Source: Pseudomonadota bacterium
GTDB taxonomy: Bacteria > Bdellovibrionota_B > Oligoflexia > Oligoflexales > RGVZ01
Direction of reading: 5' to 3'
Assembly (NCBI GenBank): GCA_041178085.1
Contig: JBEGVZ010000067.1
Location: forward strand, 1 to 32,719
Length of the DNA: 32,719 bases
In this document: positions 2,449-32,719 of the stretch, in pieces
How the letters are laid out: the number at the start of each line of letters is the position of its first letter
Numbering within the stretch: the stretch's first letter is position 1
The notes under the pieces: model-generated
What the model saw: only the letters and a program-made list of their open reading frames with translations
What the model was told of the DNA's origin: nothing
Databases searched by the model: none
Translations under genes and position numbers: made by a program

Positions 2449-2467
2449 GTTGAAAGGGGGGAATGAT

Positions 2468-9779: not shown

Positions 9780-10298
9780 ATGGCCTCAGCAGGCTCGAGT
9801 AAAGACACACTTTCGCTGAACCTCTATCCGATGATGGATATTTTCAGCATCCTGATCACGTTTTTGCTCATGAGTTATTCGACGGATCCGGTGTCTCACG
9901 ATGTGAATGCGGGGCTGGAATTGCCCGAATCCCGGACCATGATCGCACTTGATGAGATTCCGGCCATTGTTGTCACCAAGTCAGAGCTGTTCGTCAACGA
10001 CAAGAAGGTAGTCGACGTCGTCAACGGTGAGGTTCCGCAGGCACAACTTGGCGAGTCCCATCAGGGCGCGATCCGTCCGGTATTCGATGAGCTCAAACGC
10101 ATTGCAGAGACCAACAAGCGCATCACTGCATCCGTGGCGGCATCACCGGCGGACAATGTGGCAGTGGGCAAGACCGGTGCTTTGACCATGGAGATGGACA
10201 AAGGCCATCCGTTCAAGCTGATGAAGCGCATCATGCTGTCAGCCCAGCAGGCAGAATTCGTGACATTCAAACTGGTCGCTACTCGGCTCGACAACTGA
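9780..10298 (+). CDS. aglS: Second ExbD/TolR family protein (AglS-like)
   Basis: LNLYPMMDIFSILITFLLMSYS TM with the conserved Asp, LELPES, and C-terminal MDKGHPFKLMKRIMLSAQQAEF. Confidence 0.82.
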   Translation: MASAGSSKDTLSLNLYPMMDIFSILITFLLMSYSTDPVSHDVNAGLELPESRTMIALDEIPAIVVTKSELFVNDKKVVDVVNGEVPQAQLGESHQGAIRPVFDELKRIAETNKRITASVAASPADNVAVGKTGALTMEMDKGHPFKLMKRIMLSAQQAEFVTFKLVATRLDN

Positions 10299-10317
10299 GG
10301 CCGGATCGGGGATTCAT

Positions 10318-11097
10318 TTGGGTTGGCCAAAGCAAATCGGGGGTCGTGCACGCGCGCTGTTGTCGGGCGGAATGATGATTTTCGCCTGCCTTGTTTTGCC
10401 AGTGGCAAATATGCCCGCCTTCGCAGAATCAGACGACCAGCCGAAGGGGCAGTTCGAAGGTTACGAAGTCCGGGTTATCCGGCCAAAATTCTTCACCAAG
10501 GCAAAGCGCGCAGAGCTTGGCGCTCAGATGAGCGTCATCATGAACCAAACGTTCATCTACACGTATTTGCTTACAGGCGTGCTCAACTACCACCTGACCG
10601 AATCGATCGGGATTGAGTTTGATGGCAGTTACGGACTGAGTCTGGACAAGGAAGACAAGGGCATCCTCAAGAAACCGCCGACTTCGATCAACACGACCAT
10701 TCTGCGGACGCAATACCAGATGCTGGGTGGGCTCGTCTGGACGCCGCTTTACGGCAAGTACCAGCTGGCCAGTGGCCGCCTGATTTATTTTGACACTTTC
10801 CTGATTGGCGGCGGTGGTCTTACCGGGATCGATTATCAATACGATCATTGCGTCAAGTCAGCCTCGGGAAGAACGGCCGCTGCGCCATCTCCCCAGACCA
10901 AGAGTTACATGGGCGGCATGATCGGCATTGGTCAGCGGTTTTTCATCGACAAGAGCCTGTCCCTTCGCTTCGAGGTGCGTGACAACTTCTTCTCGGTCGA
11001 TTCACGTGACGGATCCTGTGATCCTGAGTTCGCTGAAAGCTCAGTGACCACGACCAACAACATCACGGTGCAGTTTGGCGCATCAAGGTTCCTGTAG
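10318..11097 (+). CDS. Outer-membrane beta-barrel protein, GltA/GltB/GltH-like
   Basis: Signal peptide ending AFA. VRVIRPKFFTKAKRAEL, WTPLYGK, IYFD, GIGQRFFI..LSLRFEVRD and a terminal aromatic strand (FGASRFL). Located within the Agl-Glt cluster. Start is uncertain (10318 or 10372). Confidence 0.75.
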   Translation: MGWPKQIGGRARALLSGGMMIFACLVLPVANMPAFAESDDQPKGQFEGYEVRVIRPKFFTKAKRAELGAQMSVIMNQTFIYTYLLTGVLNYHLTESIGIEFDGSYGLSLDKEDKGILKKPPTSINTTILRTQYQMLGGLVWTPLYGKYQLASGRLIYFDTFLIGGGGLTGIDYQYDHCVKSASGRTAAAPSPQTKSYMGGMIGIGQRFFIDKSLSLRFEVRDNFFSVDSRDGSCDPEFAESSVTTTNNITVQFGASRFL

Positions 11098-11111
11098 TAG
11101 GGGGTGGCTGG

Positions 11112-12665
11112 GTGGCGACATGGAACACAATAAGAGGAGCCAGGCTGGTCGCCTTTGCCGCATTAGTGGCGGGGATTGTCGTGTTCCCCCGGTCAGCCGA
11201 GGCGGCAAGCCTGCGTAACGTGTCCGTGCTCTACGCGCGGGGGGATTTTCCCTCGGCTGCGTCAGCAGCCTTTCAGCTATATAGTGCAAGCCGTAATGCC
11301 ACGGAGAAGTTGAACGCCGGTTTTTTTCTTGCGCGGTCACTTCAGGCCCTTGGCCTCCCGTACTCAGCGTCTCGCTTCTACACACCGATTGTCTCTGTTG
11401 GTCCGGCCAACAATCCGTTTTTCAAGCAGGCGTTTGAGCAGCTTGGCGCAATCAACAGCACAGTCAGCCTTGGCCAGTCACAGATTGTCCAGATGGTCTC
11501 TGGTCGTGACGGGGGCGGAGTAAATCCAGATTCCGTGCCGGGTTCTGCCCGTGGTTTCTACTTCTACTACCTGGGTGTTCAGGACTTCGAGGAGCGCAAG
11601 TACGAGTCGGCGGCACGTAATTTCCGCTCCGTCCCAGGTGGATCTTCTTATTACCTTCGTGCCCAGTTTCACCTGGGTGTGATTGCCAATCTTCAGGGGC
11701 AGCACAGCCAGGCGATCAGCTATTTCAACACGGTCGCTTCCGGTGCGAAGCGAAACGAAGACGGTGAGCACCTGCGGGCGTCGGCCATCATGAACATCGC
11801 GCGGGTTGAATATGAGACCAAGCGCTACATCGAGTCGCTCGACCAGTACAAACGCATCCCACGCGAATCTGAGTGGTGGCTCGATGCAATTTTTGAAGGT
11901 TCATGGACTTTCTTCCTGATCCAAAAGCACAACAACACTCTGGGTAACCTGCACACCGTCCAGGCACCGTTTTTTGACAACCGTTTCTATCCGGAGAGTT
12001 ACATCCTTCAGTCGATCACGTTCCTGCGACTTTGCAAGTTTGACGAGACCAAGCAATCGCTTGAGGCATTCAGGAACCGTTACAAGCCATTGTTTGGTGA
12101 GTTGCGGCGCATGATTAACGATTACGGAGACAATCCTCGCGCCTTCTACAAGATCGTCTACGACTTCCGTACGGGTAGCCTTGGCAAGTTCCGCGAAGCA
12201 TGGCCAATCCTGGATTCATTGTCCCGCACGGACGCATACCGCGACGGGGCGATCGCCGTCAGGAACTCAGATGCCGAGTTAGCCCGTTTGTCCCGTTATG
12301 GTGCAAAATGGGCGTCTTCCGGCCTGCAGGAAGAACTCAGGGGTTTCCTCGCCAGGAAGAAGTCGATTGCAGTTGAGGAATCAGGACGCAGGCTCTATCG
12401 CAAACTTGATTCCCAGCAGAAATATCTGAAAGAACTCTCACGTCAGACGGAGTTCATCCAGGCCGAGATGTTGCTGAATCGCGTGGATGCCTTGCGCGCC
12501 TCGCTGCGCGTGTCAACCGCCGAAAAACGGATCAACTTCATCGGCGGATTTCAATCCTTGAACCTTGCCCAGGAGCTTGAGTACTGGCCGTTCCAGGGCG
12601 AGTACTGGGAAGACGAACTCGGTTACTACGTTTACAACCTTGATAGCAGCTGTCCCAAGGGATAG
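11112..12665 (+). CDS. gltC: Periplasmic TPR protein, GltC-like
   Basis: Signal peptide (AEA). TPR helices, A.FE.SW..F, LGNLHTVQAPFF...YPE, and C-terminal EYWPFQGEYWEDELGYY..NLDSSC typical of GltC-like proteins. Confidence 0.8.
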   Translation: MATWNTIRGARLVAFAALVAGIVVFPRSAEAASLRNVSVLYARGDFPSAASAAFQLYSASRNATEKLNAGFFLARSLQALGLPYSASRFYTPIVSVGPANNPFFKQAFEQLGAINSTVSLGQSQIVQMVSGRDGGGVNPDSVPGSARGFYFYYLGVQDFEERKYESAARNFRSVPGGSSYYLRAQFHLGVIANLQGQHSQAISYFNTVASGAKRNEDGEHLRASAIMNIARVEYETKRYIESLDQYKRIPRESEWWLDAIFEGSWTFFLIQKHNNTLGNLHTVQAPFFDNRFYPESYILQSITFLRLCKFDETKQSLEAFRNRYKPLFGELRRMINDYGDNPRAFYKIVYDFRTGSLGKFREAWPILDSLSRTDAYRDGAIAVRNSDAELARLSRYGAKWASSGLQEELRGFLARKKSIAVEESGRRLYRKLDSQQKYLKELSRQTEFIQAEMLLNRVDALRASLRVSTAEKRINFIGGFQSLNLAQELEYWPFQGEYWEDELGYYVYNLDSSCPKG

Positions 12666-15600
12666 TGAGGCAACAGATGACTTCTTCCGTTGGTCTTTTC
12701 CGGAAATTGGCGGTCCTGTCGTCGAGTCTTGTACTCAGCGCTCTGCTTTGCGGTGCGGTCGGGGTTGTGCCTGACCAGAACCGCGGCAAGGACCACAAGG
12801 AATCGAGCATTGACGTGGTCGAGCGGAAAATCGACCGTGGCACTGCCGCAGAACGCAAGAACATGTCGAGTTTCACGCGTGCAGAGGCCTTCCTTGTCGC
12901 GACTGAGCAGAAACTGAGTTCCGAGATTGGCAAGACGATCCAGTATCTTCTGAAAATCGAACCCAGGACTCCGCCCCAGTCCCCGGAACGGTTGCGGATC
13001 CTTGAGCAGCTTCTGAACCTGAACATGGAGCTTGCGCTCTACGAGTCCAATGATGAATTCCGTCGCTATGACGAGGCGTACGAACGCTGGGACAATGGTG
13101 GCCGGCGTGGACCCGAGCCAAAACTTGTATCTTCCAAGTCGCAGAACCAGTGGCGGGTCGTGGCCAACCGCGCAGAAAACCTGCTGCGTCAGTTTCCCCG
13201 TGCCCGCAACGCCGACGAGACGATGTTCAACCAGGCAGTGGCCTATCAGTTCCTCAAGCGTGACAAGGATGCAGCACGAGCCTATACGACTCTGATCAGG
13301 AAGTATCCGAACTCGCCGAAAGCTGGCGACGCCTACTTCCAGCTTGGAGATTACAATTTTGACAAGGTGAACTTCCGTGCAGCCATCATCAACTACAAGT
13401 CTGCATTGAGGTACGAGCGATCCCGCGGTTACTCGTGGGCGCTGTTCAAACTTGGCTGGTGCTATTACAACCTGGGCGATTACAGCAAGAGCCTCGATTT
13501 CTGGAAGCAGACTGTGTCCAATGCCCGCAAGGCATCGGAACGTTCCGTAGCACAGTTGAAGGACGAGGCGTTGCGCGACATGGTTTATTCCTTCGCGGAG
13601 CTCAAGGCGATCGATCCGGCGATCAACTATTACCGCGCCAACGGTGGAGAGAAGTTCATCGGGCAGTTCCTGCTGCTGCTCTCCACGGTGTTTACGGACC
13701 AGGGCCAGTATGCAGAGGCAATCGGTACGCTCAAGCGCTTCCAGGCGATTGCTCCGACCAACCCCCAGGCACCGGACGCCCAGAAGGACATCGCCTCCCT
13801 GCTCTACGAACTTGGTCGTTGGAATTCTCTGTGGGCGGAGCTTGAAGCCTTCCCCCGTCTGTATGGGCCCGGAAGTGCCTGGGAAACCGCAAATCAGGGT
13901 GACCGGAAGCTTGTCCTGGAGACCCAGGCCCTGATCAAGGACCAGATCATTTACTATGCGAAGGTGTCACACAAATCCGCGCAGAAAAATGATGACGTCC
14001 GCATCTACCGGGAGGCGATGAAGGGTTACAACCTTTTCCTGAAGACGTTCCCGAAGTCCAGCGAAACGGTCGAGGTCAAATACAACATGGCCGACATCGA
14101 GTTCTTCCTGAAAGACTACCGGTCGGCCGGAAAGCTCTACCTGGACATCGCCCTCTTGGGCAAAGACAAGGCAATCATCAATTATGCCGGCGGCAAAAAG
14201 CCGACCAACATCCACTCAACAGCTGCTCGTTACATGCTGGATTCGTACTATCTGGACTTTGAGCCGGAGTTGAAAAAGCTGATCAAGGAGAAACCCGACT
14301 TCAACAAGCCGGGGAAGGTTTCGGAACGCGCTGGAAACTTCGTTAAAGGGTGTGGTTATTACAAGCAGTGGTATCCCGAGGACCGCAAGAACCTGAAGAC
14401 CTGTGACCTTTATGTTGCGGAAATCTACTACCGCCTTGGCGACCGCAACATGTCGATCCAGTACCTGACAACGATTGCCTACAAGTACCCTAACGACAAG
14501 GAAGGGCCACAGGCTGTCGAATCCCTGATCCCGCTGTACAAAAACGATCGCAAGAGCCTGCTGGAGACCGCGGACAAACTACTCAAGATCGCCGCCTATC
14601 AGAAAGGTGCCCTCGGGGAGAAGCTGCGTGACCTGCGTCGCGACGTTGAGATTGAAGAGGCTGAGAAGATCCCGGATCCGCTCAAGCGCGCAATGGCCCT
14701 TGAGGAACAGGCACGCAAAAAGCCAAACGATTCCAGGGCAGACCTTCTGGTTTACAAGTCGGCATTTGGATACGTGAAGGGGGGCGACGTCCCGCGCGCG
14801 GTGGCCATGTTCCTGACCCTGATCAAGCGGTATCCCAAGTCTGCATACGTCAAAGAAGCCCTTCTTGAGGTGGCGAAGCTCAAGGATCGGCGTCTGGAAC
14901 TGGAGTCGGCCGCGGAGCTTTACTCCGAATTCGCTGAGCGTTACCCCAAGGAAAAAGAGGCGCTTCCAGCGATGGGTCGCGCCTGCGAGCTGTTCTCTGC
15001 AAACGAAAGCCAAAAGGCTTTGCCTGCCTGCTTGACGCTTGCCAAGGTTGATCCGTCTGGCGCCAAGGTGTTCTTCGAGCGCATGATTCGTTCAGCTGCC
15101 TACGGCAAGAAATTCGAGCGCCTGAATTCCTTGACCGCTACTTATTTCACCAAGTTCAGCCTGAATGCCAATGAGCGCATCATCGCTGCGTGGCGGGTGT
15201 TCAACGCGGCCGATGGCAAGGGTTCGGAGGCCGCAAAAGCTGCAACAGATATCCTGCAATCGTTCCAGAAATCGGGTGGCAAGATATCTGGCGAGGCCCA
15301 GCGATGCGTTGGCGAGATTGTTTTCCGCCGGGCTCTGGCTGAAGTTCCAAAATACGAGGCGGTCAAGCTGGCCGGAGGCACGGTGGATGCGCTGGCTGCG
15401 TCGATCGACCGGAAGGCTGGAGCTCTTGGCCGCTTGAAGCAAGCCATGGAGACGGTCGCCGCAACCAAGGATTCATATTGGGGCGTTGCATCAATCTACG
15501 AAACCGGCAGGGCATTCGAGGCATTTGCCAGCGATCTTGAAAATCCACCGGGCATCAAGGGCGCGAGTATCGAGGATGTAAAGAAGCAACTGGCGCCACA

Positions 15601-15811
15601 GGCGCAGAAGGCCCGCCAGGAAGCCGCCACGCTTTACAAGATCGCCCTCGATACGATTGGCAAGTTCAATGTTTACAGTGATTACTCGAAGCGTGTGGTC
15701 ACCGCCGCGGCCAAACTGGGTGGTGCCAAGTTGGTGATGGAAGACTGGATCCAGACACCTGACCTGGTTGGTTCAGATGTGTCTGAGACCGTCGCGGCTG
15801 AAGTGCGGTGA
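12665..15811 (+). CDS. gltD: Large periplasmic TPR-repeat protein, GltD/AgmU-like
   Basis: 1048 aa with an N-terminal signal and many TPRs (FPRARNADETMF, YPNSPKAGDAYFQLGDYNF, ALFKLGWCYYNLG, LKDEALRD). Lies between gltC and gltE. Confidence 0.78.
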   Translation: MRQQMTSSVGLFRKLAVLSSSLVLSALLCGAVGVVPDQNRGKDHKESSIDVVERKIDRGTAAERKNMSSFTRAEAFLVATEQKLSSEIGKTIQYLLKIEPRTPPQSPERLRILEQLLNLNMELALYESNDEFRRYDEAYERWDNGGRRGPEPKLVSSKSQNQWRVVANRAENLLRQFPRARNADETMFNQAVAYQFLKRDKDAARAYTTLIRKYPNSPKAGDAYFQLGDYNFDKVNFRAAIINYKSALRYERSRGYSWALFKLGWCYYNLGDYSKSLDFWKQTVSNARKASERSVAQLKDEALRDMVYSFAELKAIDPAINYYRANGGEKFIGQFLLLLSTVFTDQGQYAEAIGTLKRFQAIAPTNPQAPDAQKDIASLLYELGRWNSLWAELEAFPRLYGPGSAWETANQGDRKLVLETQALIKDQIIYYAKVSHKSAQKNDDVRIYREAMKGYNLFLKTFPKSSETVEVKYNMADIEFFLKDYRSAGKLYLDIALLGKDKAIINYAGGKKPTNIHSTAARYMLDSYYLDFEPELKKLIKEKPDFNKPGKVSERAGNFVKGCGYYKQWYPEDRKNLKTCDLYVAEIYYRLGDRNMSIQYLTTIAYKYPNDKEGPQAVESLIPLYKNDRKSLLETADKLLKIAAYQKGALGEKLRDLRRDVEIEEAEKIPDPLKRAMALEEQARKKPNDSRADLLVYKSAFGYVKGGDVPRAVAMFLTLIKRYPKSAYVKEALLEVAKLKDRRLELESAAELYSEFAERYPKEKEALPAMGRACELFSANESQKALPACLTLAKVDPSGAKVFFERMIRSAAYGKKFERLNSLTATYFTKFSLNANERIIAAWRVFNAADGKGSEAAKAATDILQSFQKSGGKISGEAQRCVGEIVFRRALAEVPKYEAVKLAGGTVDALAASIDRKAGALGRLKQAMETVAATKDSYWGVASIYETGRAFEAFASDLENPPGIKGASIEDVKKQLAPQAQKARQEAATLYKIALDTIGKFNVYSDYSKRVVTAAAKLGGAKLVMEDWIQTPDLVGSDVSETVAAEVR

Positions 15812-15821
15812 GGGGGACACG

Positions 15822-16916
15822 ATGAAATCAACACCTTGGCAAAGCAATGTCTCCCGGATGTGTCTGGCGGCAGCCGTATTGGCAGGCCTTTGTTTGCAGG
15901 CATGCGCAACCGGCAAGAAGAAGGAATCCAGCAATGCCGATGTTGGCCGCTCGGATTCGGATGATTCAGGACCTGCAGATCCGGGAGCTCCTTCGGTATC
16001 TGGCGATCGCCGGATGGTGATCCAGTCGCTCAGCCGTGATCCCTACATGCAGCGTCCTCTTAATCGCCAGAAGCTGGAGCAGCTGGTTGGCAAGATTGCG
16101 CCCTCCGTGACCGGCGACAAGGCCGACAAGGCCAATCGCCGGTTGTTGGAGGCTTACCTAAGTGCGCAGCGCCTCGCCGGCAGGCCTCTGCCCGACCAGG
16201 CATCCACTGTGCGTGGCATTGCCGATCAATCGATGAAGAAGAATCCTGATTTCGACCTGCCTCCGGCGATCGCCCTGGAACTGGCGATATCAGCAGCCGA
16301 ATCGGGTCGCTTGTCGCTCGCTGAATTTTTCCTGGATCCGTTGCTCAAGCTCAAAGAAGGGCGGACGCGTGCCGCCGCCTTCAACCTGGCCGGTGTCATC
16401 GCGTTGAAGGAAGAACGGATCCCGGAGGCGGTATTTGCCTTCAAGGAATCCCTGAAGACGGTCAACGACTATCGGCCGGCCCAGATCAACCTTGGCATGC
16501 TTGCCTTGCACGGTGGTGATTTTGCGCTTGCGCGTGGCCTGCTCGGCGATGCCGGTGAGGACGCCCTTGTCACCAGCGGCATGGTCACCCTTGCCCGCTT
16601 CAAAGACAGCCCAGACGCTGCCGGGGAGATTTGCTCCCGCGCAGTATCACGTTACCCTGATTACAAGCCCGTGCTGTTCAACTGTGCACTTAATGAGCTG
16701 CAGGCACGCAAGGACCTGCCCAAGGCGAAGGATTACCTGGCGAAGATGCTTCGTGCGCCGGGAGGCGCCGACCGGCGTAGCGAAAGGTTTAACGACCGGG
16801 CTCAGCGGCTTCTGACGGCGATTGAGTCTGAAATCGCCTCTGCACAGGCCAAGTCAGGAGCGGGCTCTTCAGGTGCACCGGCAGAGGGATCGGCCCCCGA
16901 TTCGAAGGGCGATTGA
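15822..16916 (+). CDS. gltE: TPR lipoprotein, GltE/AglT-like
   Basis: ATG 15822 follows GGGGGA. Lipobox LQAC. TPRs AAFNLAGVIAL..., PAQINLGMLAL..GDF, VLFNCAL. Synteny gltD-gltE-gltG. Confidence 0.72.
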   Translation: MKSTPWQSNVSRMCLAAAVLAGLCLQACATGKKKESSNADVGRSDSDDSGPADPGAPSVSGDRRMVIQSLSRDPYMQRPLNRQKLEQLVGKIAPSVTGDKADKANRRLLEAYLSAQRLAGRPLPDQASTVRGIADQSMKKNPDFDLPPAIALELAISAAESGRLSLAEFFLDPLLKLKEGRTRAAAFNLAGVIALKEERIPEAVFAFKESLKTVNDYRPAQINLGMLALHGGDFALARGLLGDAGEDALVTSGMVTLARFKDSPDAAGEICSRAVSRYPDYKPVLFNCALNELQARKDLPKAKDYLAKMLRAPGGADRRSERFNDRAQRLLTAIESEIASAQAKSGAGSSGAPAEGSAPDSKGD

Positions 16917-17003
16917 ACAAACGTCAGCAGGTGCTCAGGTTTTCAGATAACCCGTGGTAATATCTAATTGTCTTGTGGAATTGGCTCGGGGAACGATGGC
17001 AGC

Positions 17004-19199
17004 ATGCTAGAACTGCGCTTCAAATTGCCGGAACAAGAAGAACAAAGCGTACCGCTGGATCAGTTCCGCATGGTCCTTGGTACCCTTCTTTCCAATCAAG
17101 TCGTTTTGCGTGCGCCCATGGTCGAACCGATTCATGGGTTGCTGGAAGCGGCTGATGAAAACAACCCGGAAAGTTGTTCCAAGTGGATCCTTACCGACCT
17201 CGGTTCCGAGGGCGGCATTCAAGTGAACGGAAATTTCATCGAAGTCGAGGCGACGCTCGCAGCAGGTGACAAGATCACTGTGGGTGCAGTCGAGTTGGTG
17301 GTTGTAGAGCGCGGGGTACAACCCGTCATGACGCCGCCGCCGCCACCTCCCCGTTTCGCCAGCACCATGACATCCCCAGAAATGCAGCCCGCCGTTGCGG
17401 GTGTCCCTCCCGTCGTACCGGGGCGCGCCGATAAAGGCGTTGCCCAGCAATCAGCGCGCGGACAATCCACGCTGATGCGTCAGCCTGAAGCCAGCGTGGG
17501 CAGGGCACCGGAAAGCACGATGCCCGGCAGCGGTGTACTGTTTTCGCCGAAGAATGCCCGACCTTCAGGTGATGTCGTTGAGGCTGTCGCCTTCTGGGGC
17601 GACACGGTTTTGGATGTGGATTATTTCCATCCAAGCATCAAGGGCAACGAACAATTGCTGATCGGCGATCCTACGAAGGACGCCCACTTGATTGCCGCAG
17701 GACCTGACAACATTTCGAGCCACGCGCTGGCTTCTATCTCGTCCAGTGGGTTCCGTCTGCGCCTTTTGCCTGGGATGACAGCGCGCCTGCGTCGTGGCGG
17801 CAAAGTGGAAAAAGTCGCTGGCCCGACGAAGGTCAACTTGGATCGCCGCGACATTGCCCTCGTGCAGTATGGTCCGGTGAATTACTTCCTGATGAATATC
17901 CGCCCGCCGGCGCTGGAAATTCCCAAGCGTGGTTTGCGCGATCCCCTGTTCGCGACAATCCTTGGATTTGGACTGTTGCTGTTCGTCTTGTTCTTGCCTT
18001 TGACTTTCATTTACAAGCCAAAGCCGGATGACAAGAAGCCCGATGATCCCTGGACGATCGTCAATCTGCCCGAGGCCGTTAAGCCACCGGAGCCGACACC
18101 AAAGCCAAAGGTCGAGATCAAGGAAGTCAAGGTGCCGCCGCCGACGCCGAAGGCTCCGCCCCCACCCAAGCCGGTGCCTGTGAAGGCGGCCAAGCCTGTG
18201 GAGCGCGAGAAGGTCGAGCAGCCGAAGCCGGTCGAGAAGCCAGTTGAGAAGAAAACTGAGCAGATCATGGCCGAGAACAAGCAAACCCAGGCTGACAAGC
18301 CCAAGGTGCCGACGCCGCCCACGCCCAAGCCGGCCGACAAGCCGCTGGACAAGCTGAGCAAGAGTGCTGGGGGTATGCCGTCTGCGGACGCCAAGAAGCC
18401 CGACTTCAAGTACGCTGGACCGCAAAATAACAAGCCTCTCGGCGCCTCGGGCGGCGAGAAAGGCAGCGGAATGAACCAGAAGGGCGGCGAACGCAAGGGT
18501 AACCAGGCCGCCAGTGTGATGGGTGTTGAAGGGGTCAAGAACAATAAGGCCTCTGGTCCCAACCTGGACAAGCTTGGCCTTGGTGCGGGCAAGGTTTTTG
18601 ACAAGAGCGGACCGAGCGCCCTCTATACCAATATGCGCAGCTCAGCGGGCGGCGCCGGTGGTGGCATGGGGTCAGGATCGAAGACCTACGGCCTCGGCGG
18701 AGTGGGTAACGGTAAGTCTCTTGGCCTTGCAGGTTCGGGTGGAGCGGTGAACAACTTCGGCTCCGGTTCCGGTGGCTTGCTTGGTGGTCAGGGCGGCCTG
18801 GGCGGCCTTGGCGGTGCGGGTGGCGGACGCGGCGCCGGGTTCGGTGGCGGATCTGGTCACGGCCGGGCTAACGTCGATGTACCGGGCACTCCTGATGTGG
18901 CCGGTGGCGGGTTGAGTCCGCAGGAGATCGTCGCGGTGGTTCGTGCCAACTTGAACCAAATTCGCCATTGTTACGAGCAGTTGCTTGCGCGCTCGCCCAG
19001 CGCGTCAGGAAAGCTTGCGGTGAACTGGACCATTGGTGTATCTGGTTCTGTGACTTCGGTTTCGATCGTGGAAAGCTCGTTTGCGGACGCCCAGATGAAG
19101 GGGTGCGTGACCAGCAGGATCCAGCGGTGGAAATTCCCGGCGCCCCGTGGTGGGCAGGCAGTGGAAGTCAACTATCCATGGACTCTAACACCGATTTGA
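17004..19199 (+). CDS. gltG: FHA - TM - Pro/Lys- and Gly-rich linker - TonB-C-like (AgmX/PglI C-terminal) protein, GltG-like
   Basis: N-terminal FHA fold (WILTDLGSEGGIQVNG...LAAGDKITVG). One TM. PK-rich then G-rich linker. C-terminal LSPQEIVAVVRANLNQIRHCYE...GKL...I..SGSV...CV...IQRWKFPAPRGG..V.VNYPW. ATG 17004 preferred to TTG 16968. Confidence 0.85.
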   Translation: MLELRFKLPEQEEQSVPLDQFRMVLGTLLSNQVVLRAPMVEPIHGLLEAADENNPESCSKWILTDLGSEGGIQVNGNFIEVEATLAAGDKITVGAVELVVVERGVQPVMTPPPPPPRFASTMTSPEMQPAVAGVPPVVPGRADKGVAQQSARGQSTLMRQPEASVGRAPESTMPGSGVLFSPKNARPSGDVVEAVAFWGDTVLDVDYFHPSIKGNEQLLIGDPTKDAHLIAAGPDNISSHALASISSSGFRLRLLPGMTARLRRGGKVEKVAGPTKVNLDRRDIALVQYGPVNYFLMNIRPPALEIPKRGLRDPLFATILGFGLLLFVLFLPLTFIYKPKPDDKKPDDPWTIVNLPEAVKPPEPTPKPKVEIKEVKVPPPTPKAPPPPKPVPVKAAKPVEREKVEQPKPVEKPVEKKTEQIMAENKQTQADKPKVPTPPTPKPADKPLDKLSKSAGGMPSADAKKPDFKYAGPQNNKPLGASGGEKGSGMNQKGGERKGNQAASVMGVEGVKNNKASGPNLDKLGLGAGKVFDKSGPSALYTNMRSSAGGAGGGMGSGSKTYGLGGVGNGKSLGLAGSGGAVNNFGSGSGGLLGGQGGLGGLGGAGGGRGAGFGGGSGHGRANVDVPGTPDVAGGGLSPQEIVAVVRANLNQIRHCYEQLLARSPSASGKLAVNWTIGVSGSVTSVSIVESSFADAQMKGCVTSRIQRWKFPAPRGGQAVEVNYPWTLTPI

Positions 19200-23895: not shown

Positions 23896-23920
23896 TAAGT
23901 GACAATTCTGAGGGGGGAAC

Positions 23921-24949
23921 ATGAAGGTAACATCAGGAACCAAATCACTTCTGGCCATGGCGCTTGCAAGCCAATTGTTTGCCGCGGGTTGCCGCATCAA
24001 AGACGTCGCAACCGAGTCCAGTCGTGCCGCTGGTAACGGCAAGTCAAGCCGTTCCTCTGACAAGGGTTCCACCTTCATGGGTGACGGGACTGGCGTCAAG
24101 GAGGACCAGGGCGGAAAGGATGTAGCCGAAGTCTCAGAGAAGACCGAGGTACCGGAATGTGCTCTGCTTGACCCGAATGGTAACGTCAGCCAGGTCATCC
24201 CGGGAGGTCCAGCTGGACTGGTAATCCCAGTAAGCAAGTACGTCAAGCAACCCGGCTTGGTGAGCTACTCCTCTCCCTCAGAGGCCAAATTCAAATTCGA
24301 CGTTTTCAGAGGTCCCAACGGCTTGGTTCTTGAGTGGCCTTCCGGCGTTGGCGGCCATTCGCTATATGTTTACGAAGCGACGATTGCCAGCGCTGATACG
24401 GCGAAGTGCACAATTACAGCCAAACTGGTGGACTCGGTGGAAAACCGGACGATGCTTGGCTGTTTCGACCCGGCAACGCGCATTCGCATGGCATCCGGGC
24501 GTGATGTCCGGATCGATGCAGTGAAGCCTGGTGACATGGTTTTCAACCCGATCGTTGGCAAGTCAGTGCCAGTGGTTCGCGTGACCAAAGGTCCCGAGGC
24601 GGGCAAAGGCATGTACCTGATTGGGTTTAAGGGGCAGGGTAACGAACAGGTAAAAGTGACCTCCAAGCATCCGTTCATGACGGACCAGGGCTTGCGAGCG
24701 GCCGAACAACTTCGCAAAGGCGACCGGATTTTGACGGCTGACGGCTCGTTCCGTAAGATTGAAGTGGCGAAGAGTTTGCCTGAGAAGGCTGGTCAAGTTG
24801 TCGTGAACGTGTCCCTTGCTGGAGCCCATCTTGAAGCTAGCCACCACATGGTCCTGGCAAATGGTGTGGTCTCTGGTGATCTGCAGCTGCAGGAGCGCCT
24901 CGAGAACGTCACTCAATTGAGCCTGTCGCGCGCCAAGGTAGCCAAATAG
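23921..24949 (+). CDS. Lipoprotein with a C-terminal Hint (Hedgehog/intein) autoprocessing domain
   Basis: Lipobox FAAGC (C24). Hint begins G180|C181 FDPATRIRMASG...IDAVKPGDMV. Block B VTSKHPF. AEQLRKGDRI. Block F VVNVSL. Block G HMVLANGVVSGD. Confidence 0.9.
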   Translation: MKVTSGTKSLLAMALASQLFAAGCRIKDVATESSRAAGNGKSSRSSDKGSTFMGDGTGVKEDQGGKDVAEVSEKTEVPECALLDPNGNVSQVIPGGPAGLVIPVSKYVKQPGLVSYSSPSEAKFKFDVFRGPNGLVLEWPSGVGGHSLYVYEATIASADTAKCTITAKLVDSVENRTMLGCFDPATRIRMASGRDVRIDAVKPGDMVFNPIVGKSVPVVRVTKGPEAGKGMYLIGFKGQGNEQVKVTSKHPFMTDQGLRAAEQLRKGDRILTADGSFRKIEVAKSLPEKAGQVVVNVSLAGAHLEASHHMVLANGVVSGDLQLQERLENVTQLSLSRAKVAK

Positions 24950-24958
24950 GAATATATT

Positions 24959-26644
24959 TTGACGAGAAAGCACGAAACAAAAGCGGTCGCCCATGCGTTA
25001 AAGCTGGCGGCCGCTTTACTTTTTTTTCCGACTTTTTCCATTTCTTGTCTGCCTAAAAAAGATGAGAAGTCAGTCAACCGTTCTAGCGGAACTGATTGCG
25101 CGTCCTCTGCGGCCTCCTGCAATGCCATCAGGACGTCGTGGGTGCTGGCTGGGTTTTCCGGCCCGGTAAGCCGGCTTGATGCCTCTGCCGGGTTCGCTCC
25201 GCCTGAGGCTGCGCAGCCGGAGGTTGTCGCGCAGCCCGGAGACCGTATCGCACGTTTTTCTACTGCGAAAACGGCGCCAGCGACACAACTGGTCAAGGAT
25301 TCGCAGCAGAGTGCCGTGAAGGCCACCGTGGATTCTCCGGTGGAGTTTCTATTCCGTCCGCGGGACAAAGTGGCAGACGGTTTCGGCTGGTTTCTGCGCG
25401 ATGCTGCAGATGCAGACAAGAATTCCGTCCCTTCGTTCAAACCGTCGGCGGCGGGAGTTGCCGTTTTGAAATTGCCAGAGAAGTCTTTCGCGCAGGGTGA
25501 CCTGTTGTTGCTGAGAGGCGCAGTTCCGCTTGAAATCAAGTTGGAGGACCGGGTTGCATGCTCAGGCATGTCCCTGGAGATGCAGGTTCGTGCGGAGAAC
25601 CTTACGAAGCCACTATCTGCTGGGAAGGTTGCTTTTGACCAGTTTACCCTTCACAAAACGGTCTTCCTGAACACCCTGTCCAGGGTGCCGGAGGCCGGAG
25701 CGTTCAAACTTGAACTGGCATTGGTCGGGGATAAACCAGCTTGTAACATCAAGGTTCTTGAACCTGCGACCTTCACGCTTCTGGTTTTCACCCGCATGAG
25801 CAGGCTTGCTGACTTCAGCGAAGCGGCCAAGTACCTGGTTGAGTCATCCATGAGTGGCGCCGACGATTTTACGGCGCCTGATAGTGTGACCACTTTGCGC
25901 GCCGGCCCGCCCATTGTGACCCTGGCCAGGAAAGACTGGCTGCATGAGAAAGATGATTTCCTCCTGGTTGATGCCTCGGTGACTTTGACGGCCGGTGACC
26001 GGTTCACGGAAACGACTGGATGGCTCCAACTGGCGCGCGCCCCCTCGGGTCTTAACTCTCATCTCACGGCGAACTCCCAGGTGGCTCAGGAGGGGCCGGT
26101 TTTGCAGCGGGTGCACGACTGGGCTTTTGCTGCTAGCGGCGCAGGGAGGACTACGTTTTATCTTAGTATTATGTCGACTGGCGAGAACGAGAAGCCGCTT
26201 GCGGTCAAGAATCCGACCATTGTTTTCCTCCATTTTGGATCCGCAGTTGGAGATGGGACGTCGCTGCAGGTAGCTGATTCGCCAGAGGCGTCAGGCGGAC
26301 GTCAGGTGGATCTTTATGCGATTCGCGCCAAAATGGCTTTCGGACCTTCCAAGCCAGCGGAGGATTCACTGCCCTGCCGTTTCTTCCAGATTGGGGCCCA
26401 AAAGATTCCCGGGGCACCCGGGATTGACGTGCCATCTCCTGTTCACCACAAGTTCAAGACAAGGTGGGTTGGCGCCAACATCGTATTTCCGGTGGTCTAT
26501 TACGAGAACATCTACCACCAGGCGCCGGTATGGACGCTGAGCCCTCCGGCTGGCCGGGAGAACCATTACGCTGACCGGTTTTATGAGGTCACTGTGACCA
26601 ACCCCGCGTCAGTTTCCTGTTCGGCGAGCGCGGCGCGCCGCTGA
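24959..26644 (+). CDS. Hypothetical secreted (lipo)protein, 561 aa
   Basis: TTG start 9 nt after the Hint gene stop, with TAGGAA upstream. Basic N-terminus plus a hydrophobic stretch ending FSISC. Beta-rich appearance with several Cys. No family recognised. Confidence 0.7.
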   Translation: MTRKHETKAVAHALKLAAALLFFPTFSISCLPKKDEKSVNRSSGTDCASSAASCNAIRTSWVLAGFSGPVSRLDASAGFAPPEAAQPEVVAQPGDRIARFSTAKTAPATQLVKDSQQSAVKATVDSPVEFLFRPRDKVADGFGWFLRDAADADKNSVPSFKPSAAGVAVLKLPEKSFAQGDLLLLRGAVPLEIKLEDRVACSGMSLEMQVRAENLTKPLSAGKVAFDQFTLHKTVFLNTLSRVPEAGAFKLELALVGDKPACNIKVLEPATFTLLVFTRMSRLADFSEAAKYLVESSMSGADDFTAPDSVTTLRAGPPIVTLARKDWLHEKDDFLLVDASVTLTAGDRFTETTGWLQLARAPSGLNSHLTANSQVAQEGPVLQRVHDWAFAASGAGRTTFYLSIMSTGENEKPLAVKNPTIVFLHFGSAVGDGTSLQVADSPEASGGRQVDLYAIRAKMAFGPSKPAEDSLPCRFFQIGAQKIPGAPGIDVPSPVHHKFKTRWVGANIVFPVVYYENIYHQAPVWTLSPPAGRENHYADRFYEVTVTNPASVSCSASAARR

Positions 26645-28433: not shown

Positions 28434-31400
28434 ATGGACGGCGATTTTAAATTCCGGCGCCTGAGGCGAGAAGCAGCTGCCTGCGTTATTGCAACGCTGG
28501 GATCTTTGCGTCGCGTCATTCTTTTAGCCGCGACGTCTTGCGTGTTGCAGCTGGTCGCATGCTCCGGTGGCGGAAGCGGCTCCGAGGAAACTGGCAACCC
28601 CAGTCGGCCCTACGGCCATCCGGGGGCGACCGGCGGTGGTTCGACCAATACGACACAAGGCCGTCTTGCGAAGTTAGTGGATGGCGAGATCAGCGACGAT
28701 TTGACCGTCGAGCTGGCGACGACATCCCTGACCGTGCGTGGCGGTACTTATCAGACCGCTTACCAGGCTCTGCTGACCGACCTGGCCGGTGAAATCATCG
28801 AGTCAAACTCCCTGAAGCTGCTTAGCCTGCCAGTCCGGGTCAGGTTATCGGATGAGGGAGGAATTTTCGATCGCACAGATTCGCACCGTGATCTTGAGAT
28901 CACCGTCACTGCAGCAAAGTCAGCCACCATTCACAAAGCCGTTTTGCTGATCATTGACTACGACGGCGTAGTAGAAGGTGAGCCTGCATCTTCGCGTTCG
29001 TTCATCCGGCTATCTGCATTGGGCAGTGCGGCCACGACCAACGCCGATGGCAAATTGACGGCAACGATCAAGGGGCGATCCGCCAATTTTGGAATTGCAA
29101 TGATCAGCGCCGAGACAGGTGATCCTGCCGGTTATTCGGCTTACAAGGAACCGCCGGTCGATCCAGTCGGTGTCTTGGCGAGCAGTGATGCTCCAGACAA
29201 GGCCGTCGTCAAGTGGCGCGCACAGAGGTTAACAGGGCAGGGTTTTGCAGTGGCCTATGGTTTGGCACCTGTCGCTCCCCTTTGTTCCGATGACTTTGCC
29301 GTGACGGCAACGGAAACATCCACTGCTCCGACGTTGGACGCGTCAGGAAAAATGCTCTACGAATACCGCGCGGAGATTGACGGGCTCGCAGACAACACAA
29401 CCTATGCTCTGCGTGTGTGTGCCTCCAACGATCGCAGTCCCAAGGATTACTCGGGTCCCGGTGCAGGCGGCCAGGTGACAACCGTGGCCCGCGCACGTGC
29501 TGTCCTCTCTGGAACCCCCGCGACACCAACCACTGAAAATTCCATCTTTGTCACCGTGGGTGGCGATGGGCTGGTGACTTATAAAAAAGCGGTCATCGAG
29601 GGATCAAGTTGTGTGGGTGCCGTTTATGGCACTTGGACTAACGTGGCCACGCCAATTTCCGAGTCTGGACTGACAGAGTCAATACACACGTTGTGTGTGC
29701 TAGGGAAAATTAATGACACGAACGTGCAGCTTGTGCCGACGACTCACACTTGGGAAGTTGACAGGACCCCGCCCACAATTACAGTTTTGCCAGCATTGGA
29801 TGCGATTGTCCTTTCCGGTGGTGGAATCAATCTTCCGGAGGCACAGTCGGACCAGGCTTTGCACAACGCTGCCACAGTCACCGGTGGTGCAGTGCTCGTT
29901 CAGTATAAAGTTTCCGGCCAATCTGTAGCCTGCAGCACAGAAACGTTTTCCGGCGCACACAACAACCTTGTCAAGAGCGGTGCCATCTCTGCGGACGGGA
30001 ACTGGAAGATTTGTGTTCGCGCAGCGGACGCAGCTGGTAACGCCGCCTATGGGGAAAGTTCCTCCTTTGTCGCGGACATTACACCGCCTGTGTTCATTAG
30101 CGGGCTTGATCTTGCCGGTGCGGCGGCGAATGGGTTTGTCAATTCGTCAGAGGTGGCGGTCGTACCGGGGAGTGATTTGGCTTCAGCTCCGGTTTTCAAT
30201 GAGGACGTGACAAAGAGCTATGCGTTAATTGCTGGTACTGAAACCTGTGGATCTGCGGCGAATCCTGCAGGGGTTTCGATTCCGACGACAACCGAATTGC
30301 AGGCAAAAGCTGACAGTTCATGGAAGGTCTGCCTGAAGGCAGTCGATCAATCTGACAATCCGGCGACGTACCAGGCGAGCCCAGTCTTCATTTTGGATAC
30401 TGTCGCGCCAAGCCTTGCCAGTGGCTTCGCCTGGGATGGTGCTGCTGCAGATTTCTATCTCAATGCTTCAGAGCGTACGGCTACCACGGCAATCCTTGGC
30501 GCTGCGGTAGCAGACGAGACCTCTACCTATCAATACACAGTCCTGCCGCTCCTGGGATCTTGCGCGACGGCAAGCGACTACGCCTCTGGTTTGCCAGCGG
30601 CGGATACCACCAAAATCACAGCCGACGGCAGCTATCTGGGCTGCGTCGAGATGACGGACAGCGCCGGAAACGTGACCCGCACGCAGTCGGCAGCTGCAGT
30701 CACTGTGGATACGGTGGAACCGTCTGCGACGATGGAGCTGATCAATGCAGCGTCTGACAGTAAAATCAATGGAGCGGAAAAATCGTCCGTTTCTACAGAA
30801 ATGGGTGACCAGCCCGCGCCATCTGAACCCCTCTCTGCAAAGACGTACAAGCTGATTCCATCGGCCACTTCGTGCGATCAAAGTCTTGTTTTTGGTGCAG
30901 CGATTCCACCGGCAAACAGCTCTGATTTTGGGGCAGACGGGGACTACCGGATTTGTATGAAGCTGATAGACCAGGCCGGTAACTCAGGGTACTCGACATC
31001 TGATTTGATTTCTCTCGATACGACGGCCCCCGTCTTCTCTTCGATCGCTTTCGCAAACGAAGCTTCTGACGGCTACATAAACCTGGCCGAAAAAGATGCG
31101 ACGACAGACATGGTGGAAGATCCGGTCGTATCGGGTGCTGATGTCGCGGAATATAAAGTGGCGGCGAATACGGCCACCTGTAGCAGCCTTTCAAGCTACT
31201 CAAGCACCAAGCCTAAGGTCAATGACGCTGAGATCTCAGCGGATGGATCGTGGAAGGTCTGCGTGAGGCTATCCGATACAGCAGGAAACGTGACGTACGG
31301 GGAAAGCTCCACTGTAGTCCGGGACATCGTGGCGCCGACGCTGAGCACTGGCTTCGCCTGGGATGGTGCTGCTGCAGATTTCTATCTCAATGCTTCAGAG

Positions 31401-32719
31401 CGTGCGGCTACGACAGCAATCCTTAGTGCGGCGGTAGCAGACGAGACTTCTACCTATCAATACACAGTGCTGCCGCTCCTGGGATCTTGCGCGACGGCAA
31501 GCGACTACGCCTCTGGTTTGCCAGCGGCGGATACCACCAAAATCACAGCCGACGGCAGCTACCTGGGCTGCGTCGAGATGGCGGATACAGCCGGAAATGT
31601 GACTCGCACGCAGTCGGCATCTGCAGTGGTAGTAGATACGGCAGCTCCGACAGCGACCATGGCCCTGATCAATGCCGCTTCTGACAGCAAGATCAATGGC
31701 ACAGAAAAATCTTCCCTCTCCACAGCAATGGGTGATGAGCCTGTCGCGTCAGAGGCGCTCTCTGCAAAAACTTACAAGCTGATCGCTTCGGCTACGAGCT
31801 GTGACAGTAGTCTTTCCTTCGGATCTTCGATGCCTGCTGCAAACAGCGCGGATTTCGGAGTCGACGGGGATTACAAGATCTGTATGAAGCTGGTCGACGT
31901 CGCAGGAAACGCCGGATACTCGGCCTCAGGCCTGATCACCCTCGATACGACCGGCCCAGTTTTCACTTCGATTGCTTTCACAAACGAAGCCTCTGACGGA
32001 TACGTAAACCTGGCCGAAAAAGACGCGACGACGGACCTCGTCGCAAGTCCCGTCGTCTCAGGTGCTGATGTCACGGAATATAAAGTGGCGGCGAATACGG
32101 CCACCTGTAGCAGCCTTTCAAGCTACTCAAGCACCAAGCCTAAGGTCAATGACGCGGAGATCTCAGCGGATGGATCGTGGAAAGTGTGCGTCAAACTCTC
32201 TGATGCAGCAGGAAACGTGACGTACGGGGAAAGTTCTGCTGTGGTCCGGGATATCGTGGCTCCTGCTCTCAGTACGGGATTTGCTTGGTCTGGCGCTGCA
32301 GCCGATTCCTATCTCAATGCTTCAGAGCGTGCGGCTACGACAGCAATCCTCAGTGCTGCGGTGGCAGACGAGACCTCTACCTATCAATACACAGTGCTGC
32401 CGCTCCTGGGATCTTGCGCGACGGCAAGCGACTACGCCTCCGGTTTGCCAGCGGCGGATACCACCAAAATCACAGCCGACGGCAGCTACCTCGGCTGCGT
32501 CGAGATTGCGGATACAGCCGGAAACGTGACTCGCACGCAGTCGGCATCTGTAGTGGTAGTAGATACGGCAGCTCCGACAGCGACCATGGCCCTGATCAAT
32601 GCCGCTTCTGACAGCAAGATCAATGGTACAGAAAAATCTTCCCTCTCCACAGCAATGGGTGATGAGCCTGTCGCGTCAGAGGCGATCTCTGCAAAAACAT
32701 ACAAGCTGATTGCTTCGGC
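28434..32719 (+). CDS. Giant surface lipoprotein/adhesin with an FN3-like domain and tandem Cys-containing Ig-like repeats; 3'-truncated by the window (>1,400 aa); missing from the ORF track
   Basis: Translated by hand; the same frame holds at 28434, 30003 and 32643, and the track lists no terminated ORF in this frame. Begins MDGDFKFRR...LRRVILLAATSCVLQLVAC (lipobox Cys at 28560; TTG 28506 is an alternative start). FN3-like segment about 29150-29480 (VVKW...IDGLADNTTYALRVCASN). Then ~103-aa modules with DxxxP starts, DGYINLAE-like and WKVCVRLSDTAGN motifs. Confidence 0.88.
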   Translation, partial: MDGDFKFRRLRREAAACVIATLGSLRRVILLAATSCVLQLVACSGGGSGSEETGNPSRPYGHPGATGGGSTNTTQGRLAKLVDGEISDDLTVELATTSLTVRGGTYQTAYQALLTDLAGEIIESNSLKLLSLPVRVRLSDEGGIFDRTDSHRDLEITVTAAKSATIHKAVLLIIDYDGVVEGEPASSRSFIRLSALGSAATTNADGKLTATIKGRSANFGIAMISAETGDPAGYSAYKEPPVDPVGVLASSDAPDKAVVKWRAQRLTGQGFAVAYGLAPVAPLCSDDFAVTATETSTAPTLDASGKMLYEYRAEIDGLADNTTYALRVCASNDRSPKDYSGPGAGGQVTTVARARAVLSGTPATPTTENSIFVTVGGDGLVTYKKAVIEGSSCVGAVYGTWTNVATPISESGLTESIHTLCVLGKINDTNVQLVPTTHTWEVDRTPPTITVLPALDAIVLSGGGINLPEAQSDQALHNAATVTGGAVLVQYKVSGQSVACSTETFSGAHNNLVKSGAISADGNWKICVRAADAAGNAAYGESSSFVADITPPVFISGLDLAGAAANGFVNSSEVAVVPGSDLASAPVFNEDVTKSYALIAGTETCGSAANPAGVSIPTTTELQAKADSSWKVCLKAVDQSDNPATYQASPVFILDTVAPSLASGFAWDGAAADFYLNASERTATTAILGAAVADETSTYQYTVLPLLGSCATASDYASGLPAADTTKITADGSYLGCVEMTDSAGNVTRTQSAAAVTVDTVEPSATMELINAASDSKINGAEKSSVSTEMGDQPAPSEPLSAKTYKLIPSATSCDQSLVFGAAIPPANSSDFGADGDYRICMKLIDQAGNSGYSTSDLISLDTTAPVFSSIAFANEASDGYINLAEKDATTDMVEDPVVSGADVAEYKVAANTATCSSLSSYSSTKPKVNDAEISADGSWKVCVRLSDTAGNVTYGESSTVVRDIVAPTLSTGFAWDGAAADFYLNASERAATTAILSAAVADETSTYQYTVLPLLGSCATASDYASGLPAADTTKITADGSYLGCVEMADTAGNVTRTQSASAVVVDTAAPTATMALINAASDSKINGTEKSSLSTAMGDEPVASEALSAKTYKLIASATSCDSSLSFGSSMPAANSADFGVDGDYKICMKLVDVAGNAGYSASGLITLDTTGPVFTSIAFTNEASDGYVNLAEKDATTDLVASPVVSGADVTEYKVAANTATCSSLSSYSSTKPKVNDAEISADGSWKVCVKLSDAAGNVTYGESSAVVRDIVAPALSTGFAWSGAAADSYLNASERAATTAILSAAVADETSTYQYTVLPLLGSCATASDYASGLPAADTTKITADGSYLGCVEIADTAGNVTRTQSASVVVVDTAAPTATMALINAASDSKINGTEKSSLSTAMGDEPVASEAISAKTYKLIAS
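30396..32719 (+). repeat. In-frame 927-bp tandem repeat (309 aa), about 2.5 copies visible
   Basis: Copies start at 30396, 31323 and 32250. The GGCTTCGCCTGGGATGGTGCTGCTGCAGATTTCTATCTCAATGC block recurs exactly 927 nt apart. Each unit holds three modules of 104, 103 and 102 aa. Confidence 0.95.

Follow-up and report, generated by a model that had tools for sequence, protein, structure and literature searches.

What becomes of the thioester in bacterial Hint domains that do not splice, release by water or attachment to something else, is the key question raised by one gene of the window, as we call the whole 32,719-nucleotide stretch of DNA analysed. The open reading frame at 23921-24949 (forward strand, as are all its sub-features) encodes a predicted lipoprotein of 342 aa, and a purine-rich sequence resembling a ribosome-binding site lies 5′ of its ATG (23910-23919). 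A lipoprotein signal peptide with the lipobox F-A-A-G-C24 (23921-23992; C24 codon at 23990-23992) is followed by a low-complexity, variable linker of residues 25-76 that is poorly conserved among homologues (23993-24148), by a beta-rich N-domain (domain X) of approximately residues 77-180 that ends at G180 (24149-24460; delimited by conservation and the structure model), by a Hint domain of residues 181-320 (24461-24880), and by a terminal helix of residues 321-342 with the near-invariant Q324 (24890-24892), then the stop (24881-24949; again from conservation and the model). The earlier note, made from the letters of this DNA, had named the lipobox, C80, C163, G180|C181, T247-x-x-H250, the stretch A313-N-G-V-V-S-G319-D320-L321 and a 22-aa tail, and all were found in place; the extracytoplasmic domain that it put at ~155 aa exists, but the folded part is about 100 aa (about 77-180) and residues 25-76 are linker.

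Domain X contains C80 (24158), C163 (24407) and the conserved R176 (24446). The protein has only four cysteines (24, 80, 163 and 181), and a C80-C163 disulfide is likely. The gene is single-copy in its own genome (one match to the protein). C24, C80, C163, C181, H250, D320 and Q324 are invariant in 11/11 homologues, and in 3/3 close pairs each of the two domains has a dN much lower than its dS, indicating purifying selection; together these observations argue that the features of the Hint lipoprotein are not due to chance. Scans for promoters (three sites vs 1.2 by chance) and terminators (four vs 4.4) were not informative.

The Hint assignment draws on Pfam-type matches, conservation, the model and structural matches. 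Pfam Hint_2 (27.3 bits against a cut-off of 28.4, from short stretches), PT-HINT (24.4 against 27.7), Vint (PF14623; 25.9 against 27 on the protein, 28.9 in the genome scan), Hint and Hom_end_hint all match the protein, each below its curated cut-off. An AlphaFold2 model of residues 76-342 (pLDDT 92.3, pTM 0.84, 119 aligned rows) has the beta-rich N-domain, a Hint domain and one helix over 321-341. Its top structural matches are Hint domains (2LWY, Z 17.2, rmsd 1.8 Å, 131 aligned); the searches returned BILs, inteins, Hedgehog and Vint, with BILs and inteins matching as well as or better than Hedgehog (1AT0, Z 15.8). A Hint fold in the model, with Cys1 and TxxH, places the protein in the Hint superfamily. 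For domain X the best structural match reached only Z 4.5, in a search with the whole model.

Within the Hint domain lie C181 (codon at 24461), N209-P210, G224-P225-E226 (24590-24598), T247/H250, N296 (position F4), H309 (F13) and, at the His-Asn positions, G319-D320, such that Gly-Asp-Leu (G319-D320-L321) stands in place of His-Asn-nucleophile. Residue 245 of the model, which is D320, was the last to be aligned against the last residues of 2IMZ (440), 1AM2 (198), 1DQ3 (454) and 6RIZ (125); this puts D320 at the terminal-Asn position of inteins and bears out the earlier mapping of block G.

The number of clusters matched by a profile built from 11 homologues rose from 470 at E<=1e-30 to 1413 at 1e-10 and, with other Hint types now included, to 6948 at 1e-3. 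We analysed 158 proteins, made up of the 150 best profile matches and the first homologues. Conservation counts, inflated because this set was picked by a profile containing the same columns, were as follows: for the residues of the first step, G180 156/157, C181 157/157, T247 143/158 (Ser in 14) and H250 158/158; for block G, G319 154/156, D320 156/156 and Q324 155/156; for other Hint columns, N209 154/158, P210 156/158, E226 157/158, N296 155/156 and H309 146/157; and for the upstream domain, C163 144/153 and R176 132/148. C1, TxxH, G-x-E and G-D-x-x-x-Q are shared by the set. The Hint is C-terminal in 158/158, which agrees with the earlier view that no toxin lies downstream, and 8-55 aa (median 18) follow the Asp. 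These tails, 12 aa or shorter in 31/158, are polar on average, and their conservation ends beyond about +7. Cys, Ser or Thr at +1 was found in 0/158.

The terminal Hint caps unrelated exported hosts: lipoproteins, Sec proteins and, in minor-pilin operons, prepilin-like proteins, with an adhesin-like build (PKD, Ig, lectin, prepilin). Rough N-terminal patterns, by which a few proteins were misassigned as judged by eye, divided the 158 into 51 with a lipobox, 44 prepilin-like, 23 with a Sec signal or transmembrane segment, and 40 partial or unclear. Among the DNA-pattern matches listed, 46 of 121 loci contain a true Hint match, and named carriers include records of Oligoflexus tunisiensis, Oligoflexales, Silvanigrellaceae, Pseudobacteriovorax, Bdellovibrionales and Bacteriovoracaceae. 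The genome tallies (34/61, 76/104, 5/18, 9/29, 102/373 and 32/151) are upper bounds that include weak matches to other Hints. The cultured species O. tunisiensis (locus L067), whose record and the window's genome appear to belong to the same order, has seven matches. A Cys at -2 (column 179), next to Cys1, occurs in 19/153 relatives; it could lock cleavage in a redox-dependent way or belong to a tip disulfide network.

Two minor-pilin-like genes, one of which passes Pfam N_methyl, come after the gene for a prepilin-like Hint protein of 819 aa (WP_141733789.1) in O. tunisiensis. We selected 20 long-ORF loci from among the strong matches, and in 11 of them a gene that is prepilin-like by pattern lies on the same strand within two genes; TIGR02532 was above cut-off in 4/33 neighbours and in 0/5 Hint proteins tested. 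Most prepilin-like Hint carriers lack Glu5, and lack of Glu5 is a trait of PilX/GspK; we infer that these proteins sit at pilus tips. Another O. tunisiensis prepilin-like paralogue (L165:1154-2767) has a Hint without Cys1 and without the G-D-x-x-x-Q end, and constitutes a natural dead control. At loci L048 and L049, three prepilin-like Hint paralogues stand in tandem; their Hints are nearly identical and their Cys-rich tips differ, which suggests a variable cassette array. A membrane-anchored protein of 280-340 aa recurs beside Hint genes in several genomes (L255:5485-6333, L256:1038-1877, L264:2703-3710, L265:5954-6967, L274:5761-6621 and L278:2654-3532), as judged from the likeness of the N-termini; the clustering covered those of L255 and L256.

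Downstream of the Hint gene in the window, a partner gene (24959-26644, forward strand) encodes a predicted lipoprotein (C30) of 561 aa that contains beta-sandwich domains and matches no Pfam or NCBIfam family. It lies directly downstream in 11 of 21 loci examined, and the other neighbours vary. Among 22 genomes of the window's family, which are kin and not independent, 11 have both a close Hint lipoprotein and the partner and 11 have neither; 107 further genomes of the phylum gave no match. The partner is thus co-inherited with the Hint lipoprotein in 11/11 carriers in the family. Its C-terminal domain (residues 443-561; 26285-26641, forward strand) is paralogous to domain X and has no Hint (hhalign probability 96.6, E 6.4e-10), and in the sister genus such a paralogue forms a separate third lipoprotein gene. 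Since the Hint-less paralogue stops about 11 residues short of the G180 position, domain X is also used without a Hint. Structural searches with the partner gave weak jelly-roll matches only (best TM 0.21), the first Atlas match was at 0.76, and the model of its C-terminal domain is of low confidence. Lipoproteins directly downstream of more distant Hint lipoproteins (L252:5290-7116 and L253:7505-9202) look partner-like by eye; their profile scores are only 5-6%, and they were not counted as partners.

The motif type itself is in print. In the accessible part of his paper, Bürglin (2008; PMC2362128) presents six bacterial proteins that are exported and whose terminal Hint ends in G-x-x-x-G-D-x-x-x-Q, the "novel Hint-like" proteins MXAN_6253, STIAU_1829, plu1731 and three others, and credits the subgroup to Dassa and Pietrokovski. 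The window protein has in common with these six its export, an upstream Cys pair, the terminal Hint and this ending, as well as the G-x-E-like motif present before block B in most of their rows; the group's signal peptide, C-terminal Hint and S16 motifs are all found in it, the motifs having been compared by eye. The six differ in their N-regions of about 400-550 aa, unlike domain X by eye, and in having no N-P at 209-210; for none of them does the accessible text give an experiment, pilin hosts or a partner gene. In a quick tree, L209 and L210, which have Bürglin's motif type, fell among window-type Hints (SH-aLRT 87, not strong).

The 2009 work of Dori-Bachash reportedly describes Bd2400 as a C-type BIL of predatory bacteria, with N-terminal cleavage in vitro and processing in vivo. 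The accessible passages of PMC9185962 cite that work for the C-type BIL and mention PPS-1, Bd2400 is mentioned in PMC2797640 (in the passage and supplement row available), and the accessible parts of PMC5874633, PMC7765530 and PMC3403396 hold no detail on type C. Our profile picked up a B. bacteriovorus protein of 913 aa (P0159; CAE80217.1 / WP_011164819.1) that contains two PKD domains as well as a terminal Hint; from its architecture and its name, "putative cell surface protein", we take it to be Bd2400. It has, as does the window protein, a lipoprotein-type signal, a terminal Hint, C1, TxxH, F4 Asn, G6 Gly, Gln at +4 and the helix. The non-splicing block G, G-[S/D]-x-x-x-Q plus helix, is common to the window protein and the Bd2400 type, and profiles of the two Hint types matched each other with probability 99.1 (E 3.7e-19). 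The Bd2400 type differs in an insertion before block B, in lacking G-P-E and N-P, and in having mostly Ser at G7 (6/8 rows). The Sec-signal proteins of loci L166, L169-L173 and L187 are short (about 260-300 aa), have C-x-C-G|C junctions and an insertion, and are intermediate between the window and Bd2400 types. G-[DS]-x-x-x-Q is kept across the window, short Sec and Bd2400 types and, in the accessible rows, Bürglin's six (PMC2362128). Domain X was also compared with the upstream Cys domain of eight Bd2400-type proteins, taken as PPS-1, and identity of the two was rejected (hhalign probability 0.3).

In an 83-row tree with the block G columns removed, 47 G-[DS]-x-x-x-Q Hints separated from 36 His-Asn Hints (100/93), and six Bd2400-type rows, a group delimited by us, formed their own branch (100/93). 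The tree used 32 of 63 window-type rows (every second row), and its outgroup consisted of His-Asn Hints only, with no Hog, Vint, type B BILs or typical inteins and with loci lacking a locatable Cys1 or His-Asn left out, so that status as a clade depends on the root. Placement of the window Hint inside the Bd2400-type branch was rejected (AU p 0.014). Window-type Hints were not one branch in the best tree, and a single clade was not rejected (p 0.4). By these tests, and dependent on the root, the window Hint would be a sister of the Bd2400-type group and outside it.

From sequence and model, the Hint protein is real and conserved, and probably active. We regard the chances as evenly balanced that its Hint self-cleaves at G180|C181 and that the thioester is then hydrolysed. 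From the residues kept and from Hint chemistry as given in the accessible parts of PMC4031507 and PMC4695875, an N-S acyl shift at G180-C181, with help from T247 and H250, would form the thioester; water would hydrolyse it at G180, the Hint would be lost in a single cut, and the lipid-anchored, disulfide-bonded N-domain would remain at the cell envelope, its new C-terminus a glycine. The cut may, less firmly, mature a surface assembly of two or three lipoproteins that includes the partner, and the cassette would act likewise at the tips of prepilin-like subunits and on secreted proteins of these bacteria. C-terminal cleavage and splicing appear unlikely, because His-Asn is absent and Ser stands at G7 in most Bd2400-type rows; this Ser also argues that cyclisation at G7 is not the conserved job of the clade. 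Chemistry confined to the N-terminal side, as the earlier note had proposed, would fit G6 Gly, G7 Asp and the residues at +1. Its statement that the protein cannot splice since +1 is Leu holds in that there is no His-Asn, but Leu alone is no bar, as type A BILs splice by aminolysis (PMC4031507, accessible part). Hydrolysis is favoured over coupling to an amine because no acceptor-binding module and no common acceptor are visible, and is supported by the terminal Hint on unrelated exported hosts, by the use of domain X without a Hint, by the short polar tail and by the cleavage by water of a Hedgehog Hint that lacks its acceptor-binding region (PMC4695875, accessible part). Against it, the near-invariant E226, D320, Q324, N209 and R176, which the first step does not require, seem to exceed the needs of simple hydrolysis and fit a controlled second step, and the reason to keep a 160-aa domain merely for discarding is not obvious.

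Attachment would supply such a second step: the G180 thioester might be held until an amine attacks, with E226, D320 and Q324 steering the reaction, and the N-domain would become covalently attached. The attacking amine could belong to a lysine in the partner lipoprotein, to a different subunit, to peptidoglycan, or to some foreign cell or surface, and on prepilin-like members the result might be a pilus tip that bonds covalently with its target. We consider this possible, with the balance against it, as an exposed thioester in water tends to hydrolyse, no acceptor-binding module is present, no acceptor is common to such varied hosts, and Bd2400-type Hints do not retain the Glu. The near-invariance of E226, D320, Q324, N209-P210 and the extein R176 speaks for attachment, as do the retention of G-[DS]-x-x-x-Q in all these Hint types and in Bürglin's six as far as accessible, the adhesin-like surface hosts, the prepilin-like neighbours (11 of the 20 selected loci; TIGR02532 in 4 of 33), the functional precedent of FrpC/FrpD (PMC5472700, accessible part), and the position of E226 in a hairpin equivalent to that of Hedgehog Asp303, at the same offset but in a register that is not established (PMC4695875, accessible part). 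It is speculative that a large clade of bacterial Hint domains is a portable, self-contained C-terminal cassette arming lipoproteins and PilX-like minor pilins with a thioester that bonds to an amine of a partner or of a foreign cell; if true, it would be a sortase-free covalent glue and a pilus-tip chemical harpoon in Oligoflexia and Bdellovibrionota.

Relatives without Cys1 (L165), and the Cys at -2 in 19/153 that could lock Cys1, would suit a Hint that stays mostly uncleaved as a structural, folding or export domain, any cleavage being slow or conditional, for example redox-gated; we think this improbable, since structural use alone would allow drift and C181 (157/157), H250 (158/158) and the Gly at -1 are kept. 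A Hedgehog-like reaction that passes the N-domain on to a lipid (hopanoid, sterol, lipid A or phospholipid), with the terminal helix as guide, would account for the G|C junction, the helix and the match to 1AT0. The earlier note had drawn this analogy, and it was not supported: nothing resembles the sterol-recognition region, a hydrophobic stretch of about 70 residues in the accessible part of PMC4695875, against which tails of 8-55 aa (median 18) are short and polar; there is no equivalent of the C-terminal Cys; the protein is already lipid-anchored at C24; and BILs and inteins match at least as well as Hedgehog. We therefore hold lipid transfer to be very unlikely. We give equally little credence to an atypical splicing route, in which D320 cyclises and the freed amine of L321 attacks the thioester, joining the N-domain to the tail helix. 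D320 does occupy the terminal-Asn position, the F13 His is kept in 146/157, and type A BILs provide a precedent for aminolysis without a +1 nucleophile, but that route needs His-Asn (PMC4031507, accessible part) and the window Hint has Gly at G6, most Bd2400-type rows have Ser at G7, and the tail is not conserved beyond about +7.

Self-cleavage followed by hydrolysis, the preferred reading, and its rivals are directly testable, as the protein is small, intact and well modelled, mutation targets are clear, and a cultured carrier exists in O. tunisiensis; the family points to C181, H250, E226, D320, Q324 and R176 as targets. If coupling is real, it would give gliding and predatory Gram-negative bacteria a new way of covalent attachment at their surface and might yield a protein-ligation tool; if there is hydrolysis only, C-type BIL biology would be extended to new hosts in an ordinary way. 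Elsewhere in the window, genes for ExbD, an outer-membrane beta-barrel, three TPR proteins and FHA/TonB_C proteins form a run (9780-19199) that we take to resemble the Agl/Glt gliding clusters of myxobacteria and Bdellovibrio. A 531-aa protein (2450-4045, forward strand) with IPT/TIG and Lcl C-terminal domains is likely a surface protein, and an open frame of about 1428 aa (28434-32717, forward strand), absent from the list of closed ORFs, runs off the contig end.

Among known systems, Hedgehog resembles the window protein in the G|C junction, the chemistry on the N-side only and the helix after the Hint. Its Asp303, required for the second step, and E226 share a +45 offset from Cys1 and the same hairpin, with a register uncertain by about 3 residues (PMC4695875, accessible part); unlike Hedgehog, the window protein has no sterol-recognition region or downstream Cys, and its tail is short and polar. 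Type A BILs, PT-HINT and inteins share the fold (2LWY), C1, TxxH, F4 Asn and F13 His, whereas the window protein lacks His-Asn, a +1 nucleophile, a C-extein and a toxin and falls on a separate branch. Vint proteins are cytoplasmic and have VWA and Vwaint upstream; the window protein has no VWA, and a literature search that covered few subscription journals gave nothing relevant on the Vint structure. The marks of a type B BIL are a Hint_2 score over the cut-off and a lack of block G similarity; the window protein scores 27.3 vs 28.4 bits, from short stretches, and no type B BIL was in the tree. FrpC of Neisseria, when bound to the co-operonic lipoprotein FrpD, cleaves itself and couples the N-fragment to lysines (PMC5472700, accessible part). 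As an exported self-cleaving protein with a co-operonic surface lipoprotein it is like the window pair in manner of working only: FrpC has no Hint, cleaves at Asp-Pro, is driven by calcium and uses RTX secretion, and attachment of the window protein is not implied.

The window protein would work like a C-type BIL and by these tests is not a member, its features placing it closest to Bürglin's uncharacterised group. The earlier note had allowed that the family might prove already characterised, and this is so in part: the motif type was described in 2008 and the sister group contains the characterised, processed Bd2400 (sources accessible in part), but a literature search that covered few subscription journals returned no paper on the subgroup, its pilin hosts or the partner. 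New here are the scale of the family, its occurrence on pilin-like subunits, and the partner lipoprotein that is inherited with the window's Hint gene and contains a paralogue of domain X without a Hint.
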